The notes below the pieces were generated by a model. That model did not search any database. It had not been told where the DNA came from and worked only from the letters and a program-made list of their open reading frames with translations. Position numbers and translations under genes: made by a program. A DNA stretch of 64,000 bases, taken from positions 203,589 to 267,588 of the forward strand of contig CAZTXT010000001.1 in NCBI GenBank assembly GCA_964617735.1, written 5' to 3'. This document shows positions 1,414 to 40,672 of this stretch, piece by piece (position 1 is the first letter of the stretch; every line of letters begins with the position of its first letter). The stretch is from an uncultured Candidatus Saccharibacteria bacterium. GTDB taxonomy: Bacteria > Patescibacteriota > Minisyncoccia > Phycocordibacterales > DSPV01.

Positions 1414-1529
1414 GGTAGTACTTGTTGATTGGCTACGACCTCTGATATAGACGACTTAGGGTGGTGCGTGCTTACGAGCCAACTCTTTACTTTTCCCTAG
1501 ACTTTTGTTACCTTATCGGAATCTCAATT

Positions 1530-1550
1530 GAGCCATTTCGGGCTCTTTTT
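1530..1550 (+). promoter_or_regulatory. leader hairpin plus U-tract 22 nt upstream of rplC (attenuator-like)
   Basis: gagcc-atttcg-ggctc then ttttt immediately before the rplC start. Confidence 0.3.
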
Positions 1551-1572
1551 AATCGGCCGAAACGGCACGGAA

Positions 1573-2172
1573 ATGAAATTCATACTGGGGAAAAAGCTGA
1601 ATATGACGCAGGTGTTCACTGAAGACGGAGTCGTGCATCCGGTCACGGTCATTTCTGCTGGCCCGGTCACGGTCACCCAAGTCAAAGGCAAGGACTCCGA
1701 CGGCTATGAGTCAGTCCAGGTTGGTTTTATGCCGACCAAGGCGAATGAGGATGTCAAAGCCGCGCACAAACGCTACGCGCACGTTCAGGAATTCCGCACC
1801 GAAGGCAAGAAGGTTGAACTCAAAGTCGGGGACAAGATAGATGTTTCTGCCTTTGTGGTCAACGATACGGTAGAGGTGAGCGGTATCTCGAAAGGAAAAG
1901 GATTTCAGGGCGTCGTGAAGCGCCATGGCTTCGGCGGCGGACGCCGCACGCACGGCCAAAAGCACAGCGAGCGCGAGCCGGGTGCTATCGGCGGGCGAGG
2001 GAGAGCTGGCGGTCGCGTGTCGAAAGGCATGCGCATGGCCGGCCGCATGGGCTCTGACCGCATCACCGTTAAAAATCTCAAAGTCGTGCAGGTGCATCCT
2101 GAGAGCAACACACTGCTTATAAGCGGCGCTATTCCGGGACGTCGGGGCACGCTCGTAGAGATCCGCGGCTAA
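1573..2172 (+). CDS. rplC: 50S ribosomal protein L3
   Basis: MKFILGKKLNMTQVF...KGKGFQGVVKRHGFGGG motifs; start chosen at the internal ATG of ORF 1528..2172. Confidence 0.95.
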   Translation: MKFILGKKLNMTQVFTEDGVVHPVTVISAGPVTVTQVKGKDSDGYESVQVGFMPTKANEDVKAAHKRYAHVQEFRTEGKKVELKVGDKIDVSAFVVNDTVEVSGISKGKGFQGVVKRHGFGGGRRTHGQKHSEREPGAIGGRGRAGGRVSKGMRMAGRMGSDRITVKNLKVVQVHPESNTLLISGAIPGRRGTLVEIRG

Positions 2173-2180
2173 ACATTTTA

Positions 2181-2849
2181 ATGGAAACTAAAGTCTACAA
2201 CCAGGATGGAAAAGAAGTGCGTACGCTCGCATTGCCGGCGGAAGTCTTCGGGGTGAAATGGAACGGCGATTTGGTGCATCAAGTCGTTGTCTCGATGCAA
2301 GCCAACGAGCGCGAGCATGTCGCGCATATCAAAACCCGCGGCCAGGTGGCTGGCGGTGGCAAGAAGCCCTGGCGCCAGAAAGGTACCGGACGCGCTCGCC
2401 ACGGCTCTATCCGCTCGCCTCTGTGGGTTGGCGGCGGTGTCACGCATGGCCCGAACCCGGACAAAGTCTATGGACGCAAAGTGAATCGCAAAATGAAAGC
2501 GAAAGCGCTCTACGCCGTGCTCTCAAAGAAGCTCTCCGATGGCGAAGTGCTTTTTGTGGATTCGCTCGCCGTTTCTTCCGGAAAAACGAAAGATGCGAAA
2601 GCTATGCTCGGCAAGCTCGCGGGCATCAAGGGCTTTGAAAAGCTCACGACCAAGCCCAAGAACGTCGCGCTCATCGCGCTCGCCAAGAAAGACAAACCGA
2701 CCGAGTTGGGCCTGCGCAATTTCGGCAACATCATGGTGGACGAAGCCCGCAACCTCAATCCCGTCAGTATTTTGAGCAACAAATATCTCGTCATCAGCTC
2801 TCCGGAGGCGTCTCTCGAGACTCTCACCGCTAAAACCGCTAAGAAATAA
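2181..2849 (+). CDS. rplD: 50S ribosomal protein L4
   Basis: KKPWRQKGTGRARHGS...GGGVTHGP motif; operon order after rplC. Confidence 0.95.
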   Translation: METKVYNQDGKEVRTLALPAEVFGVKWNGDLVHQVVVSMQANEREHVAHIKTRGQVAGGGKKPWRQKGTGRARHGSIRSPLWVGGGVTHGPNPDKVYGRKVNRKMKAKALYAVLSKKLSDGEVLFVDSLAVSSGKTKDAKAMLGKLAGIKGFEKLTTKPKNVALIALAKKDKPTELGLRNFGNIMVDEARNLNPVSILSNKYLVISSPEASLETLTAKTAKK

Positions 2850-2851
2850 TC

Positions 2852-3250
2852 ATGGCGCTCTTCGGCTTCAAAAAGAATAAGAAAGAGGAGAAGAAAGACA
2901 TCGCAACCAAGTTCGAGAAGCCTGTCGAGGTGAAGCGCGCGGTCGCGGTTTCAAATCCGGACGCGAAAGCGACCGGCGGCTCGGGCGTGCTGAAGAACCT
3001 TCGCGTTACCGAAAAAGTCTCGCTTCTCTCGGCTACCCGCAACGTCTACACCTTCAACATCACCGAGGACGCGAACAAAGAGAGCGTCTCGCAAAGCGTC
3101 GAGCACCTCTATAAAGTGCATCCGGTGAAGGTCCGCATCCTTCCGGTTCCGGCAAAGCGTGTTTTCGTCCGCGGCAAGGCCGGGGTCAAGCGCGGTGGCC
3201 GCAAAGCGTATGTGTATCTTAAGGAAGGGGAGAAAATAGATATTGCATAA
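2852..3250 (+). CDS. rplW: 50S ribosomal protein L23 (N-terminally extended)
   Basis: operon position between L4 and L2; L23-like core (VSEKA.../HPVKVRILP). Confidence 0.88.
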   Translation: MALFGFKKNKKEEKKDIATKFEKPVEVKRAVAVSNPDAKATGGSGVLKNLRVTEKVSLLSATRNVYTFNITEDANKESVSQSVEHLYKVHPVKVRILPVPAKRVFVRGKAGVKRGGRKAYVYLKEGEKIDIA

Positions 3251-3282
3251 TTCCCCACAAAGATTTTATACCCATTGGCAAA

Positions 3283-4137
3283 ATGAAATTCTATAAACCT
3301 ACAACCAAATCACGCCGCCAGTTCACGAACATCATGTATCGCGGCACCCTCACGAAGTCGGAGCCGCACAAAGCACTCACGACCGGATTTCAGCGCGACA
3401 GCGGCCGCAACAACCGTGGTCGCATCACCGTCCGCCACAAGGGGAACGGCAACAAACGCCTCTACCGCGCGATAGATTTCCTCTATGACAAACGCGACAT
3501 GAAGGCTGTGATCGAGTCCGTTGAATACGATCCGAACCGCACGGGTTTCATCGGCCTCGTCATCTACCCCGACGGAGAGCGCCGCTACACCCTTCTTCCG
3601 AAAGGACTCGGCAAAGGCTCTGGCTTTATCGTCTCTGAAAACGCGCCGCTTGTTCCGGGCAACCGTCTTCCCCTCAAGAAAATCCCGGTCGGCACGTTCA
3701 TTTTCAATGTTGAATTGAAACGCGACGGCGGCGCAATACTTGCCCGCTCGGCCGGCAACTACGCTCAGCTCATCGCGCTCGAAGGAGGATTCGCGCACGT
3801 CAAACTTCCGTCCACCGAAGTCCGCAAAGTAGACGAAGATGCATGGGCATCCATCGGCGCGGTCTCGAACGAAGAGAATCACCTCGTAAACCTCGGCAAA
3901 GCCGGACGCTCAAGGTGGCTGGGTATCCGCCCGACGGTGCGTGGCTCGGCTATGAACCCGGTTGACCATCCGTACGGCGGTGGTGAAGGACGCCAGGGAC
4001 GCGGCCGCAGACGCCTCATCACGAAGTGGGGCAAGCCCGTCGGCAAAGGACAGAAGTCCCGCCGCGCGAAGAAATACTCAAATGTTTTCATCGTTTCCCG
4101 GAGAAAGGTTGGAAAATCTCGAAAGACTGCCATTTAA
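3283..4137 (+). CDS. rplB: 50S ribosomal protein L2
   Basis: GRNNRGRITVRHKGNGNKRLYRAIDF and MNPVDHPYGGGEGR motifs. Confidence 0.95.
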   Translation: MKFYKPTTKSRRQFTNIMYRGTLTKSEPHKALTTGFQRDSGRNNRGRITVRHKGNGNKRLYRAIDFLYDKRDMKAVIESVEYDPNRTGFIGLVIYPDGERRYTLLPKGLGKGSGFIVSENAPLVPGNRLPLKKIPVGTFIFNVELKRDGGAILARSAGNYAQLIALEGGFAHVKLPSTEVRKVDEDAWASIGAVSNEENHLVNLGKAGRSRWLGIRPTVRGSAMNPVDHPYGGGEGRQGRGRRRLITKWGKPVGKGQKSRRAKKYSNVFIVSRRKVGKSRKTAI

Positions 4138-4140
4138 TCA

Positions 4141-4168
4141 AAACCGCCCTCTTGGGCGGTTTTTGTTT
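4141..4168 (+). terminator. rho-independent terminator after rplB
   Basis: accgccc-tctt-gggcggt then tttttgttt. Confidence 0.6.
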
Positions 4169-4170
4169 GA

Positions 4171-4701
4171 CATGGACAGCTCAATGGCGGCGGATACCTA
4201 CTTCTTGTTCCCAAAAGTCATACGCCATGCATCGCTCAGCTGCCTCTTCAGGAGCTTGAATTTCTGGAGAACCACATAGGCCGCATCCGTGATGTGTTGC
4301 GGAACGAGTACGACACTGACGACGTTCATGTTTTCGAGCATGGCATTGTCGGGCAGACGGTGAAGCACGCACACCTTCATTTCGTTCCCGTTAAGCATGA
4401 TTGCGACATGGACCAGAGGATACTTAAGGACTTTCCTCAAAGTACTGCAGGGTGGATACCCTCCCTGTATCTCTTGAAAAACACTCGTCAGAGTGCATCC
4501 GAGCCATATCTGATCTGGAAGAATCGCAGTAACGAGTTCAAGGTTTGCTGGGACCCGCCCGCACCTAAGCAATACTTTCGAACGGTCATTGCCGAAGCCA
4601 TCGGCTGTCCCGAGAAAGCCGATTATCGCAACATCGATCCGGAAGAGGATAAGCGTCTCTGTCTTGAAACGGTAGAGCGTCTCAAGCCGCACCTTAGTTG
4701 A
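4171..4701 (+). pseudogene. HIT-family (histidine triad) hydrolase homolog with no start codon for its N-terminal part (possible 5' truncation); ORF-finder calls only 4294..4701 from a GTG
   Basis: frame-1 translation from the stop at 4168 reads GYLLLVPKSHTPCIAQL...GQTVKHAHLHFVPVK (HIT HxHxHxx motif) with no ATG/GTG/TTG before 4294; the expected ~35-aa N-terminal nucleotide-binding strands are absent; long ~100-aa C-terminal extension. Confidence 0.45.
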
Positions 4702-4708
4702 ATATCAA

Positions 4709-4738
4709 AGCCCGCCTCCGCAGCGGGCTTTTTCTTTT
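4709..4738 (+). terminator. rho-independent terminator
   Basis: gcccgc-ctccgca-gcgggc followed by tttttctttt. Confidence 0.55.
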
Positions 4739-4844
4739 CCCAGTAAAGATTGTCTTTCCCGTGGCTTTTTGACATCTCTCTATGTCTTGGTAATGTGTGG
4801 TTAGACAAGGTTCATCATAATCAAAAAAAACAGAAAGGAATGCT

Positions 4845-5312
4845 ATGCAAAACGGAGAACCGAGCATGTACATCGGCCTCTCGACAATGCGCAACGGGCT
4901 CACCCAAATTCAATGGTCGCGTTTGCAGTTGTTCTTCATGTTCAATGCCATTGCTCTACCGTTCGTATTTGCTGCAGGCAAAAACGGAAACGCAATATCG
5001 TTCGCAAACGTCGAGATAACAAAATTACTATTAAGTGTCGTTGGGGTAGTTATCCACGTTGGCTTTTATTTCGGTGCCTTACGTGCAATCAGATGGATTA
5101 GGTACTTGAGCGAGAAACTGGCCGATTTTGAACGACTTGACCGGAAATCAGAGCCTTCACGCACGAGAGTGAAAGTCTTCAGTTACTCCCGATTCAAAGA
5201 GCTTCGCCGAGGTCAGTTTGTAACTTTTGGGCACTTGTGGCCGTTTGGCATTGGTATGGCCTTTTGGCTTGAACAATCTGTCTACCGTCTTCTGCCTTAT
5301 CTACAGAACTGA
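4845..5312 (+). CDS. hypothetical membrane protein (155 aa)
   Basis: RBS aaaggaa 7 nt upstream of ATG; several hydrophobic helices; AT-rich relative to flanks. Confidence 0.6.
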   Translation: MQNGEPSMYIGLSTMRNGLTQIQWSRLQLFFMFNAIALPFVFAAGKNGNAISFANVEITKLLLSVVGVVIHVGFYFGALRAIRWIRYLSEKLADFERLDRKSEPSRTRVKVFSYSRFKELRRGQFVTFGHLWPFGIGMAFWLEQSVYRLLPYLQN

Positions 5313-9730: not shown

Positions 9731-10966
9731 ATGGCAGTTACTCCACAACTCACTCAATATATAAACCAGGCTCGGAAGGCGGGCATGACGGACGAGCAGA
9801 TAAAGGCAGAGCTCTTAAGGGCTGGCTGGAGTGCAACAGATGTTGAGGCGGTTCTTCCGCCGAGCGATCCCGTTCCGCCGATTCCGGCGCTCCAAACCAT
9901 GTTCCAGCAGGCCGCACAGGCTGCTACGGCGATGCCTCAACCGCAGATGCCGGTCAAACGCCGCAGTCATGCGGGCTTTTGGATAACAGTCATCATCCTC
10001 CTCCTCGCCGGCGGAGCGGCTTACTATTTCCTCCCGCAACTCACCACACTCTATGATAAATACTTTGGGGCATCAGAGAGTACGAACCTCTTGCCCTATA
10101 CTCCTCCGGTAACCGATGTGAATTCCGAAAACCCTGCTATTCCGAATCCAACCGAAGCGACTTCAACCGAGGGCTGGAAGACATATACAAACGACAAGTA
10201 TGGGTTTGAGTTTCAGTATCCGGCAGATATGAACATAATTCCTGTGGAGGAGGGCCAAGTTAACTTGGCAAATCAAAAACAGCCACCACCAGTGGCAACG
10301 GAACCACCAAGTCCACTGATGCTGTTCTTTGAGGAGAGTTCAAGTAATTCTTTGGAATGGGCAAGTAAAAGATTGCAAAAGTTTGGTGGCGTACGTGAAG
10401 TTACATACCTCGAAAAGAATCTTCCACTGTTCAAAGGGGTGAATGGTGTTTTAACTTTTGAATTGGTTGATGAAATAACAGAGAAGCCTGGATACGCGTT
10501 TAGTAAAAACGGAGTCAACTATGCCTTTTTGAGCGGGATAAGTGGAAATACCAAGTTGGTTAAAATCCTCTCAACCTTCAAATTTGTTTCCTCGACGACA
10601 TCGGTTACTGACTCTCAAGCTATACAGGAGTTGGTTACCACACAACTCTCTGAACTAAGAGCGGTCACTTCTTTTCAGCAAGCCGAGGCCATTGCTTTAA
10701 AGTATGGCACGAGCGCTTATATTCAAAAGATTAAGTCCCAACAGCAGCAAATAGACTCTCTTCCGGATTCTTTTAAAGAAAGCATGGTGAAGACGTTTGT
10801 AAGCAGCTTACCTAATAGTTCTTTCCAATTCACTTCGGTAAATATTTCAGGGGACGGAGCAACCGCAATAATTTCTGATGGTAAGACCACCGGTACCATC
10901 ACTCTCAAAAAAGAGAGTGGACTATGGAAAATAGACAATGAGGCCTACAAAGAAACGGCCAATTAA
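9731..10966 (+). CDS. membrane-anchored hypothetical protein (411 aa) inside the spc-type operon; N-terminal ~40-aa module shared with gene 28116..28778
   Basis: N-terminus LTQYINQARKAGMTDEQIKAELLRAGWSATDVEAVL then one TM helix (FWITVIILLLAGGAAYYFL); 3' two-thirds markedly AT-richer than 5' third. Confidence 0.65.
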   Translation: MAVTPQLTQYINQARKAGMTDEQIKAELLRAGWSATDVEAVLPPSDPVPPIPALQTMFQQAAQAATAMPQPQMPVKRRSHAGFWITVIILLLAGGAAYYFLPQLTTLYDKYFGASESTNLLPYTPPVTDVNSENPAIPNPTEATSTEGWKTYTNDKYGFEFQYPADMNIIPVEEGQVNLANQKQPPPVATEPPSPLMLFFEESSSNSLEWASKRLQKFGGVREVTYLEKNLPLFKGVNGVLTFELVDEITEKPGYAFSKNGVNYAFLSGISGNTKLVKILSTFKFVSSTTSVTDSQAIQELVTTQLSELRAVTSFQQAEAIALKYGTSAYIQKIKSQQQQIDSLPDSFKESMVKTFVSSLPNSSFQFTSVNISGDGATAIISDGKTTGTITLKKESGLWKIDNEAYKETAN

Positions 10967-12734: not shown

Positions 12735-13427
12735 ATGAATCCAGAAGAAGTGAAAAAGGAAGAGGTGATCGAAACAGGGGCTCCAGCCGTTGCACAAGCT
12801 CCTGCCTCCAACTCCAACGCGCCCGCGAAGAAAGAGCGTTTTTTCTCTGCGGCGCCCGATCGCCAGTCTTTGCGGAAAAAGAACGTCCGTCGCAGCTCTC
12901 GTGAGCCGCGGGCGCGTTCCGAATTCGACCAGAAAATCATCACTATACGCCGCGTTGCGCGTGTCTCGAAAGGCGGCCGTCGTTTCAGTTTCAGCGTAGC
13001 GATGATACTCGGCAATCGCCACGGATCGGTCGGTGTCGGTACCGGAAAAGGCTCTGATACGGCTATCGCCATCGACAAAGCGATGCGCAACGCCAAAAAG
13101 AACATGCGGCAGCTCATGCTCACTCCGTCGAGCTCCATCGCGCACCGCGTCGAAGCGAAATTCTCCAGCGCGCGCATCATGCTCCAGCCCGCGCCGGGCC
13201 GCGGTGTGGTCGCGGGAAGCGCGGTCCGCTCTGTCCTAGAGCTCGCCGGCATCAAAGACATCACGGCAAAGATATTCTCTCCAAGCAAAAACACGCTCAA
13301 CACCGCCCGCGCTACCCTGCAGGCGCTCTTGCAGTTGCGGACACGGATACCACGGACTACAAAGGCAGGTGTTAACGAAAGCGCGCCCGTGGCTGCGGCA
13401 GAGGTAGCAGCGCCGGCGAGCGAATAG
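12735..13427 (+). CDS. rpsE: 30S ribosomal protein S5 (extended N- and C-termini)
   Basis: ITIRRVARVSKGGRRFSFSVAMILGNRHGSVGVGTGKG; ends with the LELAGIKDI motif. Confidence 0.93.
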   Translation: MNPEEVKKEEVIETGAPAVAQAPASNSNAPAKKERFFSAAPDRQSLRKKNVRRSSREPRARSEFDQKIITIRRVARVSKGGRRFSFSVAMILGNRHGSVGVGTGKGSDTAIAIDKAMRNAKKNMRQLMLTPSSSIAHRVEAKFSSARIMLQPAPGRGVVAGSAVRSVLELAGIKDITAKIFSPSKNTLNTARATLQALLQLRTRIPRTTKAGVNESAPVAAAEVAAPASE

Positions 13428-13447
13428 ATTTTCAATCTTCTACAACC

Positions 13448-13891
13448 ATGCAATTACATAACGTACAACGAAATACCAAACGCAAATACTCACAGTCCGT
13501 GGGTAGGGGCGGCAAGCGCGGCAAGACTTCCGGTCGCGGCACGAAAGGGCAGAAAGCCCGCGCTGGTCACAAGATCCGTCCGGAGGCACGGGATGTCATC
13601 ATGCGCCTGCCGAAACTGCGCGGGTATCGTTTCAAGTCGCGTTTTGAGGCGAGTGTTCCTGTCAGTTTAGAAATCATCGAACAAAAGTTCTCTGCGGGGG
13701 ATACGGTTACACCCCAGAGCCTCTTAGAAAAAGGCATCCTCTCGAGAGAGAGTGGCAGCATCCCGACAGTCAAGATTCTCTCTGACGGAGCATTGACGAA
13801 AAAGATCACGGTGCAAGGCTGTGCGATCTCTGCCGCGGCGCGAGCGAAGATCGAGAAAGCCGGCGGCGCGGTAGTAGCATCTAAGCAATAG
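13448..13891 (+). CDS. rplO: 50S ribosomal protein L15 (directly after rpsE; no rpmD/L30)
   Basis: GRGGKRGKTSGRGTKGQKARAG motif. Confidence 0.92.
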   Translation: MQLHNVQRNTKRKYSQSVGRGGKRGKTSGRGTKGQKARAGHKIRPEARDVIMRLPKLRGYRFKSRFEASVPVSLEIIEQKFSAGDTVTPQSLLEKGILSRESGSIPTVKILSDGALTKKITVQGCAISAAARAKIEKAGGAVVASKQ

Positions 13892-25683: not shown

Positions 25684-25914
25684 TTGAATGGGTAAAAAGA
25701 AAGCCGGAACTGTAGTGTACGTTCCGGCCAAGGATACTGACCTTTACCTTCCATCCTCCTTAGGAATCGAACCTGTTGTCTTTCCCATGATTCCATATCC
25801 GGCGCCGCGATTCAAGGGATAACCTAAACTGGCGCTCCACCTTCGATTCGAGATATTCACCGGGCCTCGTGTCTCGCGCTGGACTGCTTGGTATACTGAT
25901 AGTGTTACTTATCA

Positions 25915-26484
25915 GTGATAATGTATACGATTATGATAGACAAAGTTATTAACGAAGCGAAAAATGCGGTCGTCGCCGCGATCAAGGGCACGGGTGAGAC
26001 GGTGGCCGTTTTGGAGGATACGGTCGGAAATCTTTTGGTTAAAACGGTGCAGAACGTCGGCGGTGGAACGACTGAAGTCATGGGGACTGTGGTAGGGGTT
26101 GCCAAAGGTGCAGTCGCTGCGCTTGCGGGCACGGCCATTTCGGCCGAGGATGGCGTGGCCGCGGTGGTCAGAAGTTCTATAAAAAGCGTTTCTGATATCG
26201 GCGGTGACGCAGCGAGTGCGGCCAAGGGTGCGGTTTCGGGAAGTATCAGTGGAGCCGCCGAGATCGGCGGGAACGTTTCTAAAACCGCGGTCAATGCGGT
26301 GTTGAGTGCGATTAAGACCGCCGGTGAAGTCGGCGGCAATGTCGAAGCGATAACGAAGAGCGCTCTTTCCGGCGCCGTTGAGATTGCTGATTCTTTGGGC
26401 GGGAAGGTTGGTAAAAGCATCAAAGAAGCTTTGAAAGGCACAGCCTCGATTCCCAAGGAGCTGGTGCATGCCGCGATCAAATAA
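25915..26484 (+). CDS. Gly/Ala/Val-rich tandem-repeat protein (189 aa)
   Basis: ~8 imperfect repeats of the A-x-x-G-A-V-x-G...EIGGNV type; promoter region contains the palindrome actgata-gtgttac-tatcagt. Confidence 0.55.
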   Translation: MIMYTIMIDKVINEAKNAVVAAIKGTGETVAVLEDTVGNLLVKTVQNVGGGTTEVMGTVVGVAKGAVAALAGTAISAEDGVAAVVRSSIKSVSDIGGDAASAAKGAVSGSISGAAEIGGNVSKTAVNAVLSAIKTAGEVGGNVEAITKSALSGAVEIADSLGGKVGKSIKEALKGTASIPKELVHAAIK

Positions 26485-26505
26485 CTGATTTAATCAATCC
26501 CAACG

Positions 26506-26530
26506 AAAACTGCCCTTTAGGGCAGTTTTG
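26506..26530 (+). terminator. rho-independent terminator
   Basis: ctgccc-ttta-gggcag followed by ttttg. Confidence 0.5.
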
Positions 26531-26540
26531 CGTTTATGGG

Positions 26541-26567
26541 TGGAGATGCCTGAACGACGTTAGAACC
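26541..26567 (+). repeat. conserved intergenic box, copy a (TGGAGATGCCTGAACGACGTTAGAACC)
   Basis: near-identical copies at 27369, 28822 and a more diverged one at 39764; each 13 nt before an AAAAAAACC-hairpin (minus-strand terminator). Confidence 0.6.
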
Positions 26568-26646
26568 GTTTTTGTCTCATAAAAAAACCAGTGACCGATT
26601 ATGGTCGCTGGGAGATTGTGAGCGGTGTCTTAGGTGCGCTTCACTG

Positions 26647-27054
26647 CTATACGTCACAGCCTTGCTTACGCAGGGCGCGGAGGAGCGCCCTGCCCGGTTT
26701 CTTTGGAGCGCCCATCTGCTGAGGCTCGCTGTCCGGGAACAGTTCGATATTGAGGATGGTTATGATGCGCCCCAGCATATCGTTCCATTCGAAGGCTGAG
26801 CCTTTGGTGAGCGAGATTTCGTACTGATCGATATGGACCGTTTTGATGCCATCGACCCCGAACAGGCGAGTTACATAAACCGGTGGGTCTTTCTCACCGA
26901 CTATTGTGTTGCCATTCCACACGTCGATTTTGTCGCTCGGGCTCTCGAAGTTCTCGCACATGTTGTTCACCAGTCGGCTTGTTACATGGATGCTCAGACA
27001 GTTGGGGTTCGGATGGAACTCCAGCTTGTATTTCATAGCTTTTTTGGCTTTCAT
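26647..27054 (-). CDS. NifU/Nfu N-terminal domain-like protein with a basic C-terminal tail
   Basis: KLEFHPNPNCLSIHV...GVDGIKTVHIDQYEISLTK...EWNDMLGRIITIL resembles the Nfu_N scaffold domain. Confidence 0.6.
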   Translation of the reverse strand: MKAKKAMKYKLEFHPNPNCLSIHVTSRLVNNMCENFESPSDKIDVWNGNTIVGEKDPPVYVTRLFGVDGIKTVHIDQYEISLTKGSAFEWNDMLGRIITILNIELFPDSEPQQMGAPKKPGRALLRALRKQGCDV

Positions 27055-27368
27055 ATGTTGTTGTTCACTACAGGATCGGTTTCTTAACCAGTGCAGGTAA
27101 GAAATCGATTTCTGCAGTGAACAGATATGGACCCAAATTTCAAGGTTCTGTCACCGGGGAATACTATCACGTATTTTAGTATCATGTCAAGTCGCTTCAA
27201 AGGCAGAGTGTCCTAGGCATTTGCAATCCGCTAAGTGCTCTCGACCCCGCCTCGCTGCCGCAATAGCGGCATGCTCCGTCTTTCGACTCCTCTCGAAAGC
27301 GAATCAATTCGCTTTCTCATCACCATCGAAAAAACAAACCACCCATGCGGGCGGGTTACGTTTGTCGT

Positions 27369-27395
27369 TGGAGATGCCTGCACGACGTTAGAACC
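27369..27395 (+). repeat. conserved intergenic box, copy b
   Basis: TGGAGATGCCTGCACGACGTTAGAACC; shares ~40 nt including upstream CGTTTGTCGT with copy a. Confidence 0.6.
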
Positions 27396-27451
27396 ATTTA
27401 TATCAAATAAAAAAACCAACTACTGATTTAGGGTAGTTGGTTTGTGATCAC

Positions 27452-27934
27452 TCAGAAGAACTCTCCATTTTTGTATTCTTGGAGTGTCGCTGCCGCTGTC
27501 TCCCGTTCTGGACTTTCAGTAATTTGGTCTGCCCAGAGTTCTGCTTCCTTGAGTTTCTCGTGCACGAGAAAATGTAAAAGTCTCGTGATTTTATTCGGGT
27601 GGTCGGGCATTTGTAGCTCCAGTGCTTTGCCAGCGTACAACTGGGCAAGCTTCCGATCTTTTCGTTTCCAGATGGCAATACTAGTTGCGTGGTGATACCA
27701 GAACCACAGAATCTCATGCCACCAGATTTTATCTGATTCAGAAAGGTCGGATGGGTTGATTCCCTCCAAAAGCATTTTAATCCTGTTGGTGATAAGGCTA
27801 GGCTCAGAGTCGTCCCATGCTTTGGTTTTCATTAGCCTCTGGTCCTCCTCGCCATATGCCCGCGAGAGACTTCTGAAATCGTTCACACCAAGTAGGGCAA
27901 AGGCCGCACGGACGTTAGGGTGAGTTAGCATCAA
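27452..27934 (-). CDS. hypothetical protein (160 aa)
   Basis: coding-like ORF ending just before box b and its terminator. Confidence 0.55.
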   Translation of the reverse strand: MMLTHPNVRAAFALLGVNDFRSLSRAYGEEDQRLMKTKAWDDSEPSLITNRIKMLLEGINPSDLSESDKIWWHEILWFWYHHATSIAIWKRKDRKLAQLYAGKALELQMPDHPNKITRLLHFLVHEKLKEAELWADQITESPERETAAATLQEYKNGEFF

Positions 27935-28115
27935 TCCTCCTGTTGTTGATTGTTTAGAACTGAAAAACCGGAATTGACACTACGGTAACCTGTATCTTAT
28001 GTCAAAGGATCAAAGCCAGAACCGCAAACTCCCTGCTAGAACCTGTTTTCTTGGAAATGAGCCGCGGTTTGAACAAGTTTGTTGTATTGCCAAAGAAATT
28101 TCTTAAAATAGTGTT

Positions 28116-28778
28116 ATGGCAGTAAATAAAGAACTGATAGATTACATAAAACTATCTCGAGTTTCGGGAAAATCCAATGATTCTATTAAGGCCGAACTCT
28201 TGAAGAGCGGTTGGAGCGAAATTGATGTAAATTCTGCGCTTGCCGATAACTCTGTTCCGCAATCGATCGCACCATTGATACCAGAGTCATTTGTGCCACA
28301 AATCAATACTCTTCAGAAGCAAGAAGAAAGCCCTCTCGTCACAGCATCACCTAAATTTCGATGGTTCATTGGCTCGTTTGGTTTTATTTTTGTGGCTATC
28401 GGTATATATTTTTTTGTAACAGTTCTTCTTTTTTCTATGATAGCTGTCCAAACAGTAGGAACTATAACAGGAAATACTGTAACCACTAGCCATAGTAATG
28501 GACACACCGAAAAAAGTTATTGCCCTCAAGCGACTTTCACTGCGGATGGAAAAGAATACAATTTCACAAATAATGTCTGTTCAAGCTCCGCATATAGTGT
28601 AGGTAGCGAGGTAGACATACTTTATGATCCAAATAATCCATCCAAAGCTCGCATTAAGGGCGGAAATCAGTGGGTGATCCCGGTAGTTTTCACCGGCGTT
28701 GGATTGCTCGCATTTTTAGGCGCACTGTTCAATATTATCAAAGTTGGAAAACCAATATTTTCTACGAGAAAGCTCTGA
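28116..28778 (+). CDS. membrane protein sharing the N-terminal module of gene 9731..10966 (AT-rich)
   Basis: MAVNKELIDYIKLSRVSGKSNDSIKAELLKSGWSEIDVNSAL aligns with MAVTPQLTQYINQARKAGMTDEQIKAELLRAGWSATDVEAVL; two TM segments. Confidence 0.6.
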   Translation: MAVNKELIDYIKLSRVSGKSNDSIKAELLKSGWSEIDVNSALADNSVPQSIAPLIPESFVPQINTLQKQEESPLVTASPKFRWFIGSFGFIFVAIGIYFFVTVLLFSMIAVQTVGTITGNTVTTSHSNGHTEKSYCPQATFTADGKEYNFTNNVCSSSAYSVGSEVDILYDPNNPSKARIKGGNQWVIPVVFTGVGLLAFLGALFNIIKVGKPIFSTRKL

Positions 28779-28821
28779 GACATCTTAAGTACCCAGGTTG
28801 CCTTATGCTAAATATTCCTTG

Positions 28822-28848
28822 TGAAGATGCCTGAACGACGTTGGAACC
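28822..28848 (+). repeat. conserved intergenic box, copy c
   Basis: TGAAGATGCCTGAACGACGTTGGAACC. Confidence 0.6.
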
Positions 28849-28902
28849 TGTTTTGTGTAAGAAAAAGACCTACTCACCATGTGGTTTTCGGTCTTGCTTA
28901 TA

Positions 28903-29250
28903 TCAGCGAATGTATTCGGGTGGAGTCAGGTCCGGAAGTTTGCCGCACCTTTCGCAAAAGATTCCGGTCTCCCCTTGAATGACCGCAGCGCCCTTGCATG
29001 GTCGGTGATAGCACTGACTTGTGTTCATATCTTCGAAGTATCGTTTCTCGTACTCCTCAAAAAAATCGAAGACTTCTTTCGTTTGCTCTGGAGAGAGTTT
29101 CTTCTTGTCCAGACCTTCACGAAGCTGACTTTCAAGCTGTTCCCTCGTTGCTGGGGAGGGCAGTTCTCCTTCCCAAGCAGGAGGAAACTTTATGTTTACA
29201 TCCCGTATAAGTAGATCGATTATCGGTCCACCAGGTCTTTCACATCCCAT
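28903..29250 (-). CDS. small Cys-containing hypothetical protein (C-terminal CxxC zinc-ribbon-like)
   Basis: C-terminal QCYHRPCKG...FCERCGKLP. Confidence 0.5.
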   Translation of the reverse strand: MGCERPGGPIIDLLIRDVNIKFPPAWEGELPSPATREQLESQLREGLDKKKLSPEQTKEVFDFFEEYEKRYFEDMNTSQCYHRPCKGAAVIQGETGIFCERCGKLPDLTPPEYIR

Positions 29251-29375
29251 AATATATCCTTTTGTTGAGGTTCTGCTCGAAGATTACACATGCCAGCATA
29301 AAATTGCAAATTCTTTCCAACAATAAAGACTGAGGGAGATTTTATTGTTCCGCATTGCGCATGTTTTTATTTCTA

Positions 29376-29390
29376 TGGAGATGGGCAGAA
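29376..29390 (+). repeat. direct repeat of the tmRNA 3' terminus (TGGAGATGGGCAGAA)
   Basis: matches 15/16 with TGGAGATGGGCGGAAT at 29579..29594 (complement of the ssrA 3' end), ~200 bp away. Confidence 0.55.
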
Positions 29391-29579
29391 GTTACGCGGA
29401 TCGGCTACAAGTTTTACCTTGCCGTCGCTCGGTAAACTTGCAGCCCACCCCTCGCGATTTTTTCTGCTGAAAAAATATCGCTGCGGTCTTCGATTCCGCA
29501 CGTGAGCGAAACCCTTCGCTCACTCCACTCCAATTAAGAAAAATCGCCCGCCATGACTGGCGAGCTGATTTTTCAAAAT

Positions 29580-29971
29580 TGGAGATGGGCGGAATCGAAC
29601 CGCCGTGCAAAGGGTGAATTGGGGAAAGTCTACACGATGTAGTCGGTCTTTTGTTTTCGGCGCTCGTACTATAAGAGCGACAGAACATACGAGAGCTTAT
29701 TCTCTATGGTTCGGATGTGAACCGAGAAGGGAGCACGTCCTAGCCCGAAAATATCATGCCCCGCGATGCGATTCAGGCGAGCGCACCGGGAACACGTTTA
29801 CGTATTATGCGTAAACGAAGGCGAGGTCCTTCGCTCCGAAATACGGAGAAACGATGGCCTTTGCCTTTGCAACTGCGTTTTTGGCAGTTATGGTTTCCAG
29901 CAGTTTATGGAGTTACTGGAGCTCCATCGCGCATTCCAAAAGACATTCCTTTGTCTATGCCGTTCATCCCC
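29580..29971 (-). ncRNA. ssrA: tmRNA (ssrA), ~392 nt, CCA not encoded
   Basis: 5' GGGGAUGAACGGCAUAGAC pairs with 3' ...GGCGGUUCGAUUCCGCCCAUCUCCA (T-arm plus acceptor); tag ORF ends at a UAA inside a CGUUUACG/CGUAAACG hairpin loop; directly downstream of smpB; terminator hairpin follows. Confidence 0.8.
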
Positions 29972-29982
29972 CTATGAAAATA

Positions 29983-30429
29983 TCAACGTTCCGTCATTTC
30001 CCGTTGGATATCCCGATCCGCTTCGCGGCGTTTGATGCTCTCGCGTTTGTCGAATTTCTTCTTACCGCGCGCTATCGCGATGCGAACCTTGATAAGGCCG
30101 TCCTTATTGTACAGTGAGATTGGCACTATTGTCAAACCTCGCTGCATCTCGCCGCTGCCGAGCGTCTCAATTTCTTCTTTCGTCAGCAAAAGCCGTCGGC
30201 TGCGGGTGGGTTCGTAGTCGCGCGGCGTGTTGCCCGGCTGGTAGGGAGCGATAGTTGCGCCGACGAGATACGCTTCGCCACCGCGAATAGTGACGTGTGA
30301 GCCGTCGAGAGACGCTTTTCCTTGCCGGATCGCTTTCACTTCAAATCCGAGCAATTCGATACCCGCCTCCAATTCTTGCAGGAGTTCATAGTTAAAACGC
30401 GCTTTTCGGTTGGTGGCGAGGTCAGGCAT
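29983..30429 (-). CDS. smpB: SsrA-binding protein SmpB
   Basis: KARFNYELLQELEAGIEL...GKKKFDKRESIKRREADR. Confidence 0.92.
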   Translation of the reverse strand: MPDLATNRKARFNYELLQELEAGIELLGFEVKAIRQGKASLDGSHVTIRGGEAYLVGATIAPYQPGNTPRDYEPTRSRRLLLTKEEIETLGSGEMQRGLTIVPISLYNKDGLIKVRIAIARGKKKFDKRESIKRREADRDIQREMTER

Positions 30430-32919: not shown

Positions 32920-32993
32920 CCGCCCTTAGCTCAGCTGGTTAGAGCAACGAGCTTATACCTCGTAGGTCCTTGGTTCGAATCCAAGAGGGCGGA
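32920..32993 (+). tRNA. tRNA-Ile (anticodon UAU), no encoded CCA
   Basis: cloverleaf: acceptor CCGCCCT/AGGGCGG, D arm GCTC-AGCTGGTTA-GAGC, anticodon stem ACGAG/CTCGT with loop CTTATAC, T arm CTTGG-TTCGAAT-CCAAG. Confidence 0.85.
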
Positions 32994-33142
32994 ATATAGA
33001 GCGAAGCGAAATATTCCGCCCTAGCACGCAAATCATTTTGCGTGCGGCTGGATTCGAACAGCGGAGCGATGTTTGCCTCTTCGGCAAACCGCGAGCTGGT
33101 GCCCAGGCCAAAGCGAGCGACGGCGAGCTTTGAGTCGCGGGC

Positions 33143-33159
33143 GAATCCAAGAGGGCGGA
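33143..33159 (+). repeat. direct repeat 1 of the tRNA-Ile 3' end (GAATCCAAGAGGGCGGA)
   Basis: 17/17 identity to 32977..32993. Confidence 0.6.
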
Positions 33160-33316
33160 TACGCGTTAAGAAAATCCAAACCGCTTTGGATTTTTAGCGT
33201 ATCCGAGCCGCAGCATCCGCCTCAGGCGGAGCGAGGCGGGGTCGCGAACACTTGGGCTTTTGGAATTTCTCGATTCCAAAAGACTTAGTGATTCGTGACG
33301 ACACTTAGCAAAGCCG

Positions 33317-33333
33317 ATCCAAGAGGGCGGAAT
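33317..33333 (+). repeat. direct repeat 2 of the tRNA-Ile 3' end (ATCCAAGAGGGCGGAAT)
   Basis: 17/17 identity to 32979..32995. Confidence 0.6.
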
Positions 33334-39718: not shown

Positions 39719-39763
39719 ACGATTTTTTATTATTATTTGTGCTATGTGTCGATAATGTTTCTG

Positions 39764-39791
39764 GCGGAGAATCGTGGATGACGTTAGAACC
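39764..39791 (+). repeat. diverged copy d of the intergenic box (GGCGGAGAATCGTGGATGACGTTAGAACC)
   Basis: shares GACGTTAGAACC and the GGAG start with copies a-c; lies between the 3' end of AT-rich gene 39828..40409 and the start of VOC gene 39718. Confidence 0.45.
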
Positions 39792-39827
39792 TATGTACAA
39801 GAGAATAACGCTAATTTTAACGTACCA

Positions 39828-40409
39828 TTAAACCTTCATTGTGATTCCTAACAACATGAATACTGCCAGAATGGCAATAAAACAACCAAATACAATCAAA
39901 CCCCAAATCGAAATTCTTTTAATGTATTGATCAGAACGACTCTGATTGGCGGATCTAATAGCGAGGATTGCGCAAAGAAGTGAAATTGTATAGATCAAGG
40001 CTGCCCAAGATTTGAATGATGCTTGATAGAATTGCCACGCAGGTATCAACGTGAGAAAAGATACTGTCGCTAAGATTTTCGCCATCCCAAACCGCTTCTT
40101 AGCATCAGGATTTGCATTTGAGACTTCTGTAGTTCCTTTTGATAATTTGCGTACATATATACCAACTCGTCCAGAAGCGATTAGACAAGCCACTCCAAGA
40201 ACTATGAACAGACCTAATAAAGCATCATTACCGCCAGAGACATCGGAGAAAACAGCTGCGACACCAATAATACCTACGATTGCTAAGACGAGCTCAAGAA
40301 TGAAGAAGCCAATAATCTTTCCTATTTCTTCTGTATTCTGGCCTTTATGAGAAATAAGAAACTGGACAATTCGGAAAATTAAATAAATTAAACCTAAATA
40401 TAAAAGCAT
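39828..40409 (-). CDS. AT-rich hypothetical polytopic membrane protein (193 aa)
   Basis: 6 predicted TM helices; much lower GC than neighbours; immediately 3' of tRNA-Ser. Confidence 0.6.
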   Translation of the reverse strand: MLLYLGLIYLIFRIVQFLISHKGQNTEEIGKIIGFFILELVLAIVGIIGVAAVFSDVSGGNDALLGLFIVLGVACLIASGRVGIYVRKLSKGTTEVSNANPDAKKRFGMAKILATVSFLTLIPAWQFYQASFKSWAALIYTISLLCAILAIRSANQSRSDQYIKRISIWGLIVFGCFIAILAVFMLLGITMKV

Positions 40410-40544
40410 AATTTAATAATTTAATTTTTAAAAAAGCCTATTCGTGTATGAATCTGTTTCATTATTCAACACGTAACCTCACCATTATATTGGTTAAAAG
40501 TTTCTTTTGCACGACGTAAGGTGTATAGATTGTTTTTATGTAAA

Positions 40545-40631
40545 CGGAGGAGGTGGGATTCGAACCCACGGGACCCTTTTAGAGGTCCACGGTTTAGCAA
40601 ACCGTTCCGTTAACCGCTCCGGCACTCCTCC
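40545..40631 (-). tRNA. tRNA-Ser (anticodon GCU), long variable arm, no encoded CCA
   Basis: acceptor GGAGGAG/CTCCTCC, anticodon stem ACGGT/ACCGT with loop TTGCTAA, variable arm GGACCTCTAAAAGGGTCCC, T arm GTGGG-TTCGAAT-CCCAC. Confidence 0.85.
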
Positions 40632-40672
40632 AGAGAGCTTACTTTAAACTTTTAAGTCGCAACTTTCAACTT

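Follow-up and report, generated by a model that had tools for sequence, protein, structure and literature searches.

Box-delimited gene units stacked behind the tmRNA gene of an uncultured Saccharibacteria bacterium: a probable accretion array of serine recombinase elements beside a structured tDNA-linked sequence

The closest described counterpart of the locus reported here is the set of islands behind the transfer-messenger RNA (tmRNA) gene, ssrA, of Dehalococcoides, where islands stand in tandem, a CcrB-like large serine recombinase (LSR) gene on the reverse strand overlaps ssrA, and a conserved motif that cannot be aligned with ssrA lies upstream of each repeat (PMC3146451). Many of those islands carry no integration module and have been interpreted as mobilisable in cis or as fixed by accretion (PMC3146451). 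We analysed a 64,000-nucleotide stretch of an uncultured Candidatus Saccharibacteria genome (GenBank assembly GCA_964617735.1, contig CAZTXT010000001.1, positions 203,589 to 267,588; hereafter the window, with coordinates counted from its first letter), in which small gene units, each closed by a copy of a short conserved sequence that we call the box, lie directly 3' of ssrA. The region from 26.5 to 29.4 kb probably arose by tandem accretion and comprises three or more small units, each the remnant or a cis-mobilisable derivative of an LSR element that targets the 3' end of ssrA; a fourth unit of the same family stands at tRNA-Ser(gct).

The likeness to Dehalococcoides extends to several features. 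In both, several units stand in tandem directly 3' of a single-copy ssrA; the recombinase of one relative of our host (L052, below) lies on the reverse strand next to attL with its frame running into ssrA; and the conserved motif upstream of the Dehalococcoides repeats is the equivalent of the box. The two systems differ in that they belong to different phyla and the relatedness of the LSRs to DsiB is unproven, in that the shared core is 8 bp here rather than a 20-bp repeat, and in that the window units are 0.5-1.4 kb long with one or two genes each, whereas the Dehalococcoides islands span several kb. Neither a second small recombinase (DsiA) nor an integration module was seen here, the box family also targets tRNA-Ser(gct), and a structured element, S, described below, is involved.

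The ssrA gene is intact. It occupies 29580..29971 on the minus strand, with its 3' end at 29580 as placed by a preliminary description of this DNA, and was recognised by ARAGORN and by the Rfam model RF00023 (100 bits, full length, model positions 1-374). The gene ends in ...GGCGGTTCGATTCCGCCCATCTCCA, with CCA not encoded, and smpB lies directly upstream (29983..30429, minus strand; Pfam SmpB, 2.3e-51). On the plus strand the box reads GGTGGAGATGCCTGAACGACGTTAGAACC and starts at 26539, 27367 and 28820, with zero or one mismatch over a 23-nt core, where shuffled sequences are expected to give none. A fourth, diverged box stands at 39763-39791, 3' of tRNA-Ser(gct). All four lie 3' of a tRNA or tmRNA gene (tDNA) and have the orientation of the adjoining gene. 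In the tmRNA sense, all three units end in the same order: a gene, a terminator-like hairpin, a T-run, about 12 nt and then the box (GGTTCTAACGTCGTTCAGGCATCTCCA).

Counting from ssrA, unit 3 (28849..29375, minus strand) consists of a gene for a Cys-rich 115-aa protein (28903-29250, from the open reading frame (ORF) list) and a terminator-like hairpin with T-run (about 28861-28894), and is closed by box 3 (28820..28848, minus strand), which the pattern search gives in the tmRNA sense as GGTTCCAACGTCGTTCAGGCATCTTCA(C). Unit 2 (27396..28819) is of mixed orientation, with a DUF3592 membrane protein gene on the plus strand (28116-28778; Pfam DUF3592, 2.6e-12), a 160-aa gene on the minus strand (27452-27934) and a terminator-like hairpin (27409-27441); its box 2 (27367..27395, minus strand, pattern search) reads GGTTCTAACGTCGTGCAGGCATCTCCA(A). 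Next, at 27201..27354 on the minus strand, come the terminator-like hairpin T2 (27339-27354, terminator scan) and S2, a degenerate core of element S (27201-27294; cmsearch E-values 4.2e-7 and 2e-8). This arrangement 3' of box 2, terminator and then S2, mirrors the one 3' of the tmRNA gene, directly behind which stands T1, a terminator-like hairpin with T-run (29546..29565, minus strand; terminator scan and sequence). Unit 1 (26581..27200, minus strand) holds a promoter-like site (27161-27190, promoter scan), a gene for an Nfu_N-like 135-aa protein (26647-27054; Pfam Nfu_N, 4e-8) and a terminator-like hairpin (26581-26612), and its box 1 (26539..26567, minus strand; pattern search and sequence) reads GGTTCTAACGTCGTTCAGGCATCTCCA(C) and is followed by a bidirectional terminator-like hairpin (26504-26531). 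The convergent gene for a Gly/Ala-repeat protein that follows (25915..26484, plus strand, ORF list) has a host-like GC content at third codon positions (GC3) of 0.58, and we take it as the flank beyond the last box, outside the array. The sister unit (39763..40632, minus strand; tRNA scan and sequence) comprises an intact tRNA-Ser(gct) gene (40544-40632), an AT-rich gene for a 193-aa membrane protein (39828-40409) and box 4, GGTTCTAACGTCATCCACGATTCTCCGCC. The three box-delimited units of one or two small genes, and the similar unit with its diverged box at tRNA-Ser, are thus as the preliminary description had them.

No recombinase or fragment of one was detected in the window, either by tblastn with nine LSR queries (E<=0.1) or with their profile against all six-frame fragments (best E 5), in line with the earlier statement that no integrase survives; a resident recombinase beside the target, which among other features defines a live island, is absent from the window. 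We therefore file the array as a degraded or non-autonomous island array of LSR type, without a resident recombinase. Recombinases were found in relatives, in loci of other Paceibacterota. In L052, a 554-aa LSR with Resolvase, Recombinase and Zn_ribbon_recom domains is convergent with ssrA, and its reading frame overlaps the tmRNA 3' end. LSR homologues also adjoin the ssrA 3' end in L002, L065, L039, L026, L005, L043, L046 and L096, and the tRNA-Ser(gct) 3' end in L002, L011 and L042, with Pfam confirming the domain architecture in both L002 copies and in L039. The targets in relatives are the same two genes beside which the window has boxes, and every recombinase found at these sites is an LSR, not a tyrosine integrase.

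The box itself is linked to these elements. An exact search of 81 loci (80 smpB loci and L001) gave no match, and a mismatch-tolerant search gave a single box, in L052, 8.2 kb 3' of ssrA, in the tmRNA sense and followed by a terminator hairpin; the L052/L093 box has four mismatches to that of the window. Scanning metagenomes with a degenerate box pattern yielded eight loci. In loci other than the window, (A/G)TTAACAT repeats usually stand ahead of the box, two to four of them at a distance of 25-30 nt (L052 19050-19123; L087 8640-8705 and 10250-10306; L088-L091, including L089), and these repeats might bind an accessory or directionality protein. A collection of viral contigs scanned for the box gave none, and because of this the box elements look like islands rather than prophages.

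Strain-level polymorphism at the tmRNA 3' end was seen in relatives. L096 and L094/L095 share one SmpB, 73% identical to that of the window, and differ at 1 of 5460 nt (99.98% identity) up to exactly ...CGCCATCTCCAC, beyond which they are unrelated, with an LSR C-terminus following in L096. The point at which the strains diverge is immediately after the core ATCTCCAC. In L088, L090 and L091 the flank 3' of the box matches the flank 3' of the structured element in L029. The contigs of several of the nearest relatives stop a few hundred bases past smpB, just beyond ssrA, as expected at a variable or repeated site.

The most informative locus outside the window is L087, where smpB and ssrA are followed by a 4.5-kb unit and box A, then by a unit of 0.8 kb at whose end stands a degenerate box, the terminator and structured element that in L029 lie directly 3' of ssrA, a 0.6-kb unit, box B and the flank. 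The 4.5-kb unit carries sugar-modification-type genes and a GreA-like gene; no LSR was found in it by tblastn, and no recombinase domain in its ten largest ORFs that were scanned. The flank after box B resembles, by eye, the sequence directly 3' of ssrA in L081 and L018, a resemblance that blastn did not recover. L081 and L018 may on this reading be empty sites, and L087 would then represent a tandem insertion between ssrA and its old flank, each unit being closed by a box.

Another way to view the box is through the geometry of attachment sites. The far-boundary repeat is short, the boxes sharing ATCTCCA(C) with ssrA and TCTCCG with tRNA-Ser, and this length of 6-8 bp is as expected for a serine and not a tyrosine recombinase. 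The spacing from GGTTC to ATCTCC is 15 nt in the box and 10 nt in tmRNA (GGTTCGATTCCGCCCATCTCC); likewise, box 4 has GGTTC-15-TTCTCCG where tRNA-Ser has GGTTC-10-TCCTCCG, its proximal part being altered to TCTCCG, the acceptor end of tRNA-Ser. In characterised LSR sites, the motif of the zinc-ribbon domain occupies positions 16-24 in an attP half-site and 11-19 in attB, a shift of 5 bp (PMC3783163). Read against this, the GGTTC offset of boxes 1-4 relative to tmRNA and tRNA-Ser is the same 5-bp attP/attB shift. If GGTTCNANN is taken as the zinc-ribbon motif, the predicted centre falls, for ssrA (ATC-TC-CAC) and tRNA-Ser (C-TC-CG) alike, on one and the same TC. The attP of L052 (GGTTCTAATGTCGTTCATTAATCTCCAC + ATTTGGTCATTTTTAGAGTAC), rebuilt from its two junctions, has TCTAA/TTAGA at +/-17-21 around the predicted centre by manual count. 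We read the box as a putative P half-site of an LSR attP fused to the 8-bp core ATCTCCAC that it has in common with the tmRNA acceptor 3' strand; if it is such an arm plus core, each window box would therefore be the distal (attR-type) junction of one insertion. As in the attachment sites of the phage LSRs A118/LI, Bxb1 and phiC31 (Rutherford et al. 2013, PMC3783163), the distal motif lies 5 bp further out in attP, there is imperfect dyad symmetry around a central dinucleotide, here a predicted one, and the integration products would be hybrid sites, B-P' and P-B'. Unlike the phage sites, those described here are predicted from sequence, and the element has to restore its target, the end of an RNA gene.

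The window locus shares with the tDNA islands catalogued by Islander and TIGER (Williams and co-workers; PMC4383910) site-specific insertion in the 3' part of a tRNA or tmRNA gene, an intact target gene and the possibility of tandem arrays, but those islands are mostly products of tyrosine integrases marked by a displaced gene fragment, where here we see an attP arm with an 8-bp core. That common pattern raises the question of whether tyrosine-integrase islands stood at ssrA, with the boxes and a 15-mer at 29376 as displaced copies of the ssrA 3' end. The preliminary description had taken the segment 29376..29390 for an exact copy of the tmRNA 3' end and for the signature of integration and excision. 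The match is in fact 14/15, one base differing (TGGAGATGGGCAGAA versus TGGAGATGGGCGGAA), and although its start falls within the T-loop, where crossovers are known to occur, the segment forms the 3' terminus of S (core 29394-29501, E 6e-9) and delimits no islet. S, with this end, is conserved in many genera, both behind ssrA and behind several tRNA genes. The boxes share 8 bp with ssrA, their other 19 nt being conserved among genomes whose tmRNA T-arms differ, and the recombinases at these sites in relatives are all LSRs. The tyrosine alternative is accordingly very improbable despite the frequency of such islands at tDNAs (PMC4383910). Since the recombinase is an LSR, the boxes would be attP-arm remnants that share only the 8-bp core with ssrA, and not displaced ssrA fragments. 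The idea of a tandem accretion zone at ssrA thus stands on the LSR genes, boxes and strain polymorphism of relatives, the evidence drawn from the 15-mer having been misread.

A third possibility is that the small genes belong to the host by vertical descent, the box being a host repeat, comparable to repetitive extragenic palindromes, that is tied to terminators or regulation and resembles tmRNA by coincidence. A terminator-like hairpin and T-run do precede each window box, and composition bears on the question in both directions. The ORFs of the window have a mean GC3 of 0.61 (standard deviation 0.084), which the DUF3592 gene (28116-28778, already noted as AT-rich in the preliminary description) and the tRNA-Ser-linked membrane gene undercut by more than three standard deviations, at 0.33 and 0.32; the Cys-rich (0.46) and 160-aa (0.53) genes lie between these and the Nfu_N-like gene (0.69), which like the Gly/Ala-repeat gene is host-like. 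In addition to the two strong outliers, four of four boxes stand 3' of a tDNA and in its orientation, the proximal part of the box tracks its target (ATCTCCA at ssrA, TCTCCG at tRNA-Ser), and in other genera this box is found at the end of an LSR element and at the edges of insertion polymorphisms. We regard a native origin of the genes, with the box as a host repeat, as highly unlikely. Two further candidates were rejected: the box and terminator hairpins as integron attC sites, for which there is no attC-type palindrome, GTTAGAA misfits GTTRRRY, there is no IntI and gene orientations are mixed; and the box as the 3' half of a pseudo-tRNA, whose T-stem cannot form.

The cargo of the units looks foreign or accessory. 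None of the six unit proteins has a homologue in about 95 related loci, and against PHROG and PADLOC they gave nothing except one weak CARF_TM match; the Cys-rich 115-aa protein belongs to no Pfam, PHROG or PADLOC family. The family of the 160-aa protein has 48 members in 5.8e9 proteins, and the four with a source name come from Patescibacteria-type metagenome-assembled genomes (MAGs); its homologues (L103-L105; two relatives checked) do not stand at tDNAs, and a single weak 17-mer is all that resembles a box there. In other box-bounded islands the cargo includes sugar-modification-type genes (L087) or a set of three genes (L092). In the latter (Ga0256845_1007700, 1426-5069), this set encodes a Shedu SduA-C nuclease, a PIN-domain protein and a TerB-N protein and adjoins a box at 2198-2224, while 1426-1452 holds another, degenerate one, so box elements can bring defence genes.

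Drawing on published LSR work, we propose the following course of events. A dimer of the LSR would pair attP (box, core and P') with attB (the T-loop and acceptor of tmRNA, core and downstream flank), and strands would be exchanged at the central dinucleotide, by half-site geometry the TC of ATC-TC-CAC. The element would thereby be placed behind an intact tmRNA gene, with its box adjoining the old flank, and repeated insertions would stack the units. In the window, the recombinase genes and most of the cargo would since have been lost, leaving promoter-gene-terminator-box units that would either be fixed or depend on a recombinase supplied in trans. For the units of the window, both this route and the sequence of events are our inference, as is the crossover position. 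The right-hand half-sites (B', P') at the junctions in the window gave no motif that is consistent, and no order of insertion follows from them.

Several points weigh against this account. The crossover dinucleotide and the half-site roles rest on sequence and analogy, and for an LSR to insert in tandem, a pseudo-attB has to exist once the first insertion is complete, as we assume here. The window boxes are without the TTAACAT repeats that precede the box elsewhere, and the units, at 0.5-1.4 kb, are far below the 8 kb of an intact element; an intact element with the window's own box variant (CAGGC) was not found in the viral contig and metagenome scans. The Nfu_N-like gene, with its GC3 of 0.69, is host-like. 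The closest other SmpB is 79% identical and on a contig of 735 nt, so that the relatives show no empty site or indel polymorphism for the window's own units; within the same population, Logan contigs match the window at 100% identity. A break of a Logan contig at the tmRNA 3' end (L001 ends at 29582) was considered as a polymorphism and rejected, since the overlapping contigs likewise all show 100% identity; the break is more simply explained by a k-mer that other tmRNAs contain as well.

The small size of the units also suggests that they could be live miniature cassettes, mobilisable in cis and moved in trans by an LSR elsewhere in the 675-kb genome or on a visiting element; the tDNA would then be an LSR analogue of an integron platform. 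Box-closed units of one or two ORFs recur in two unrelated genomes, those of the window and L087, the L087 boxes are identical over 27/27 nt and keep their TTAACAT repeats, each window unit keeps its terminator and unit 1 a promoter-like site, and the integrase-less ssrA islands of Dehalococcoides have been interpreted likewise (PMC3146451). The boxes of the window, however, differ from one another by one to three substitutions and have no TTAACAT repeats, the left (P') ends of its units show no common recognisable half-site, gene orientation within units is mixed, and two read sets that carry the population gave no circular junction or polymorphism. Live cassettes are thus an unlikely, though not a negligible, alternative to a degraded accretion array.

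The 15-mer that started from ssrA led to the structured element, S, a conserved and apparently undescribed three-way-junction element after tDNAs across Paceibacterota. The copy nearest ssrA, S1 (29376..29536, minus strand), has a 5' arm complementary to the acceptor 3' strand of tmRNA, a three-way-junction core at 29394-29501 and a 3' arm (29376-29390) that is the 14/15 copy of the tmRNA 3' end; it is supported by cmsearch (E 6.4e-9 and 3.1e-10), by a full-length fold with z = -6.46 and by homologues after ssrA in many relatives. Two tandem copies follow tRNA-Ile(tat) on the plus strand (33046-33152 and 33206-33300; cmsearch, fold z = -6.85), and behind each of them the tRNA-Ile 3' end recurs, as GCGAATCCAAGAGGGCGGA behind the first (to about 33160) and as CCGATCCAAGAGGGCGGA behind the second (about 33316-33333). 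With S2, the window holds four copies (29394-29501, 27201-27294, 33046-33152, 33206-33300).

In many relatives the ssrA terminator is followed by S, whose 5' end is the reverse complement of the acceptor 3' strand of the local tmRNA and whose 3' end often directly repeats that of the tmRNA. The 5' arm changes with the local tmRNA, being GTCTCCAC with GTGGAGAC in L008, ATTTCCAC with GTGGAAAT in L009, and ACTTCCAC with GTGGAAGT in L041 and L067. The core, of about 65-170 nt (about 150-160 nt with the arms), is built from P1 (GGAAUCG/CGAUUCC), the junction AAAG, P2 (GCC[GGA]...[GA]GGC), the junction GG and P3 (GGUCGNGA...UCGUGACC). A covariance model built from 12 hand-picked copies, in which 14/25 pairs are compensatory, was used to search 1.3 Mb and gave 49 matches, which lie on the same strand as and 3' of tmRNA, tRNA-Ile(tat), tRNA-Ser, tRNA-Pro and tRNA-Arg genes. 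At least eight copies, next to four different kinds of tDNA, have a 3' end in which 15 or more of the last 16 nt of their own neighbouring gene recur. Among the 49 matches, 91.3% of cells are paired and 24/25 pairs are compensatory, figures somewhat inflated by an alignment fitted to the model; in the same model-fitted alignment the covariation score is 0.645, compared to 0.20 for shuffled and at most 0.13 for slid partners. Because one pair is G.U in 37/49 copies, it is the tDNA-sense strand of S that folds.

Three S copies tried against Rfam 15 gave only noise at E<=10, with only tmRNA and tRNA matching at gathering thresholds, literature searches gave nothing on S, and a scan of viral contigs for its core gave only two chance matches in GC-rich coding DNA. 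S shares with tRNA-like structures and tRNA mimics the pairing of its termini, the 3' strand being that of a real tDNA acceptor and T-arm, and its position on the tDNA sense strand, with no specific family matching. Unlike the mimics it has no T-loop or anticodon arm, its helix instead being capped by the conserved three-way junction. The tmRNA-linked copy, as read from its sequence, has A3-U70 and not G3.U70. Alanylation requires G3.U70 under the rule for alanyl-tRNA synthetase (AlaRS).

Several identities for S were considered and rejected: a hammerhead (no CUGANGA), a kink-turn in P2 (loop sizes misfit), a group I intron in the T-loop, an idea taken from PMC13011429 (the upstream tDNA is complete and the core too small), a tyrosine-recombinase core site (no inverted repeat at the T-loop copy) and an element required in cis by ssrA (S is absent beside ssrA in L052 and L087).

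Both in the window and in L087 the LSR-type units lie behind the 3' copy of S, and this copy with the old flank seems able to serve as a secondary target. On this basis it is conceivable, as a tentative extension of the accretion reading and one to which we give only about one chance in four, that S is an undescribed, widespread structured RNA, born beside tDNAs, that would mimic the acceptor and T-arm 3' strand and act as a landing pad where LSR units pile up, sparing the essential gene, so that tDNA, S and boxes together would form an LSR counterpart of an integron platform.

Observations from relatives bear on S and the ssrA flank in other ways. On the plus strand of L006, at about 13400-13545 in the flank of tRNA-Pro(ggg), S lies between two copies of a 53-nt sequence, a perfect direct repeat composed of 19 nt from the 3' end of the tRNA plus the 34-nt terminator; this has the look of a recent duplication or insertion and hints that S, or a module of terminator and S, can spread. 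Further copies occur, among many others, in L006 (13425-13513, minus strand), in L039 (640-751, minus strand) and, two in tandem, after the tmRNA gene of L097. In L031 (10900-10975), L041, L067, L027 and L008, a near-perfect palindrome of 60-80 nt stands just 3' of ssrA and includes the last 10 nt of the tmRNA gene, its parts being the tmRNA acceptor 3' strand, an A-tract, a terminator stem-loop, a T-tract and an antisense arm.

As for the host, whose genome is of Paceibacterota type, the closest SmpB proteins of a species-level genome collection share 56-66% identity with its own and belong to MAGs under such names as Paceibacterota, Saccharibacteria, Nomura-, Zambryski- and Taylorbacteria. 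The tRNA-Ile of the window with anticodon UAU (32920-32993) lies near ftsH and smpB, and many relatives have a tRNA-Ile(UAU) gene within a few kb of smpB. In L097 (SmpB 74% identical), ftsH carries an intein with a LAGLIDADG domain (1857-5051, precomputed Pfam matches). ARAGORN detects a tmRNA gene in 46/80 smpB loci and misses about 40%; that of L087 (3828-4248), which it missed, is plainly there by sequence, and matches to S 3' of smpB (near 10450-10900) suggest that the tmRNA was overlooked in L020, L042, L054, L062 and others.

The array is probably a Patescibacteria counterpart of the Dehalococcoides ssrA islands, and as such a case of ordinary island build-up. Patescibacteria genomes are tiny; in this one the flanks of ssrA and tRNA-Ser carry compositionally atypical gene units, and relatives acquire at these flanks elements whose cargo includes defence genes (Shedu, PIN and TerB-N in L092). 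LSR islands may also explain why the contigs of several relatives end just 3' of ssrA, and a serine-type recombinase with a readable attP/attB code makes the box a practical marker for islands in fragmented metagenome bins. S, a by-product of following the 15-mer, covaries, copies the 3' ends of neighbouring tDNAs and has no Rfam entry, and it may matter more than the islets themselves.

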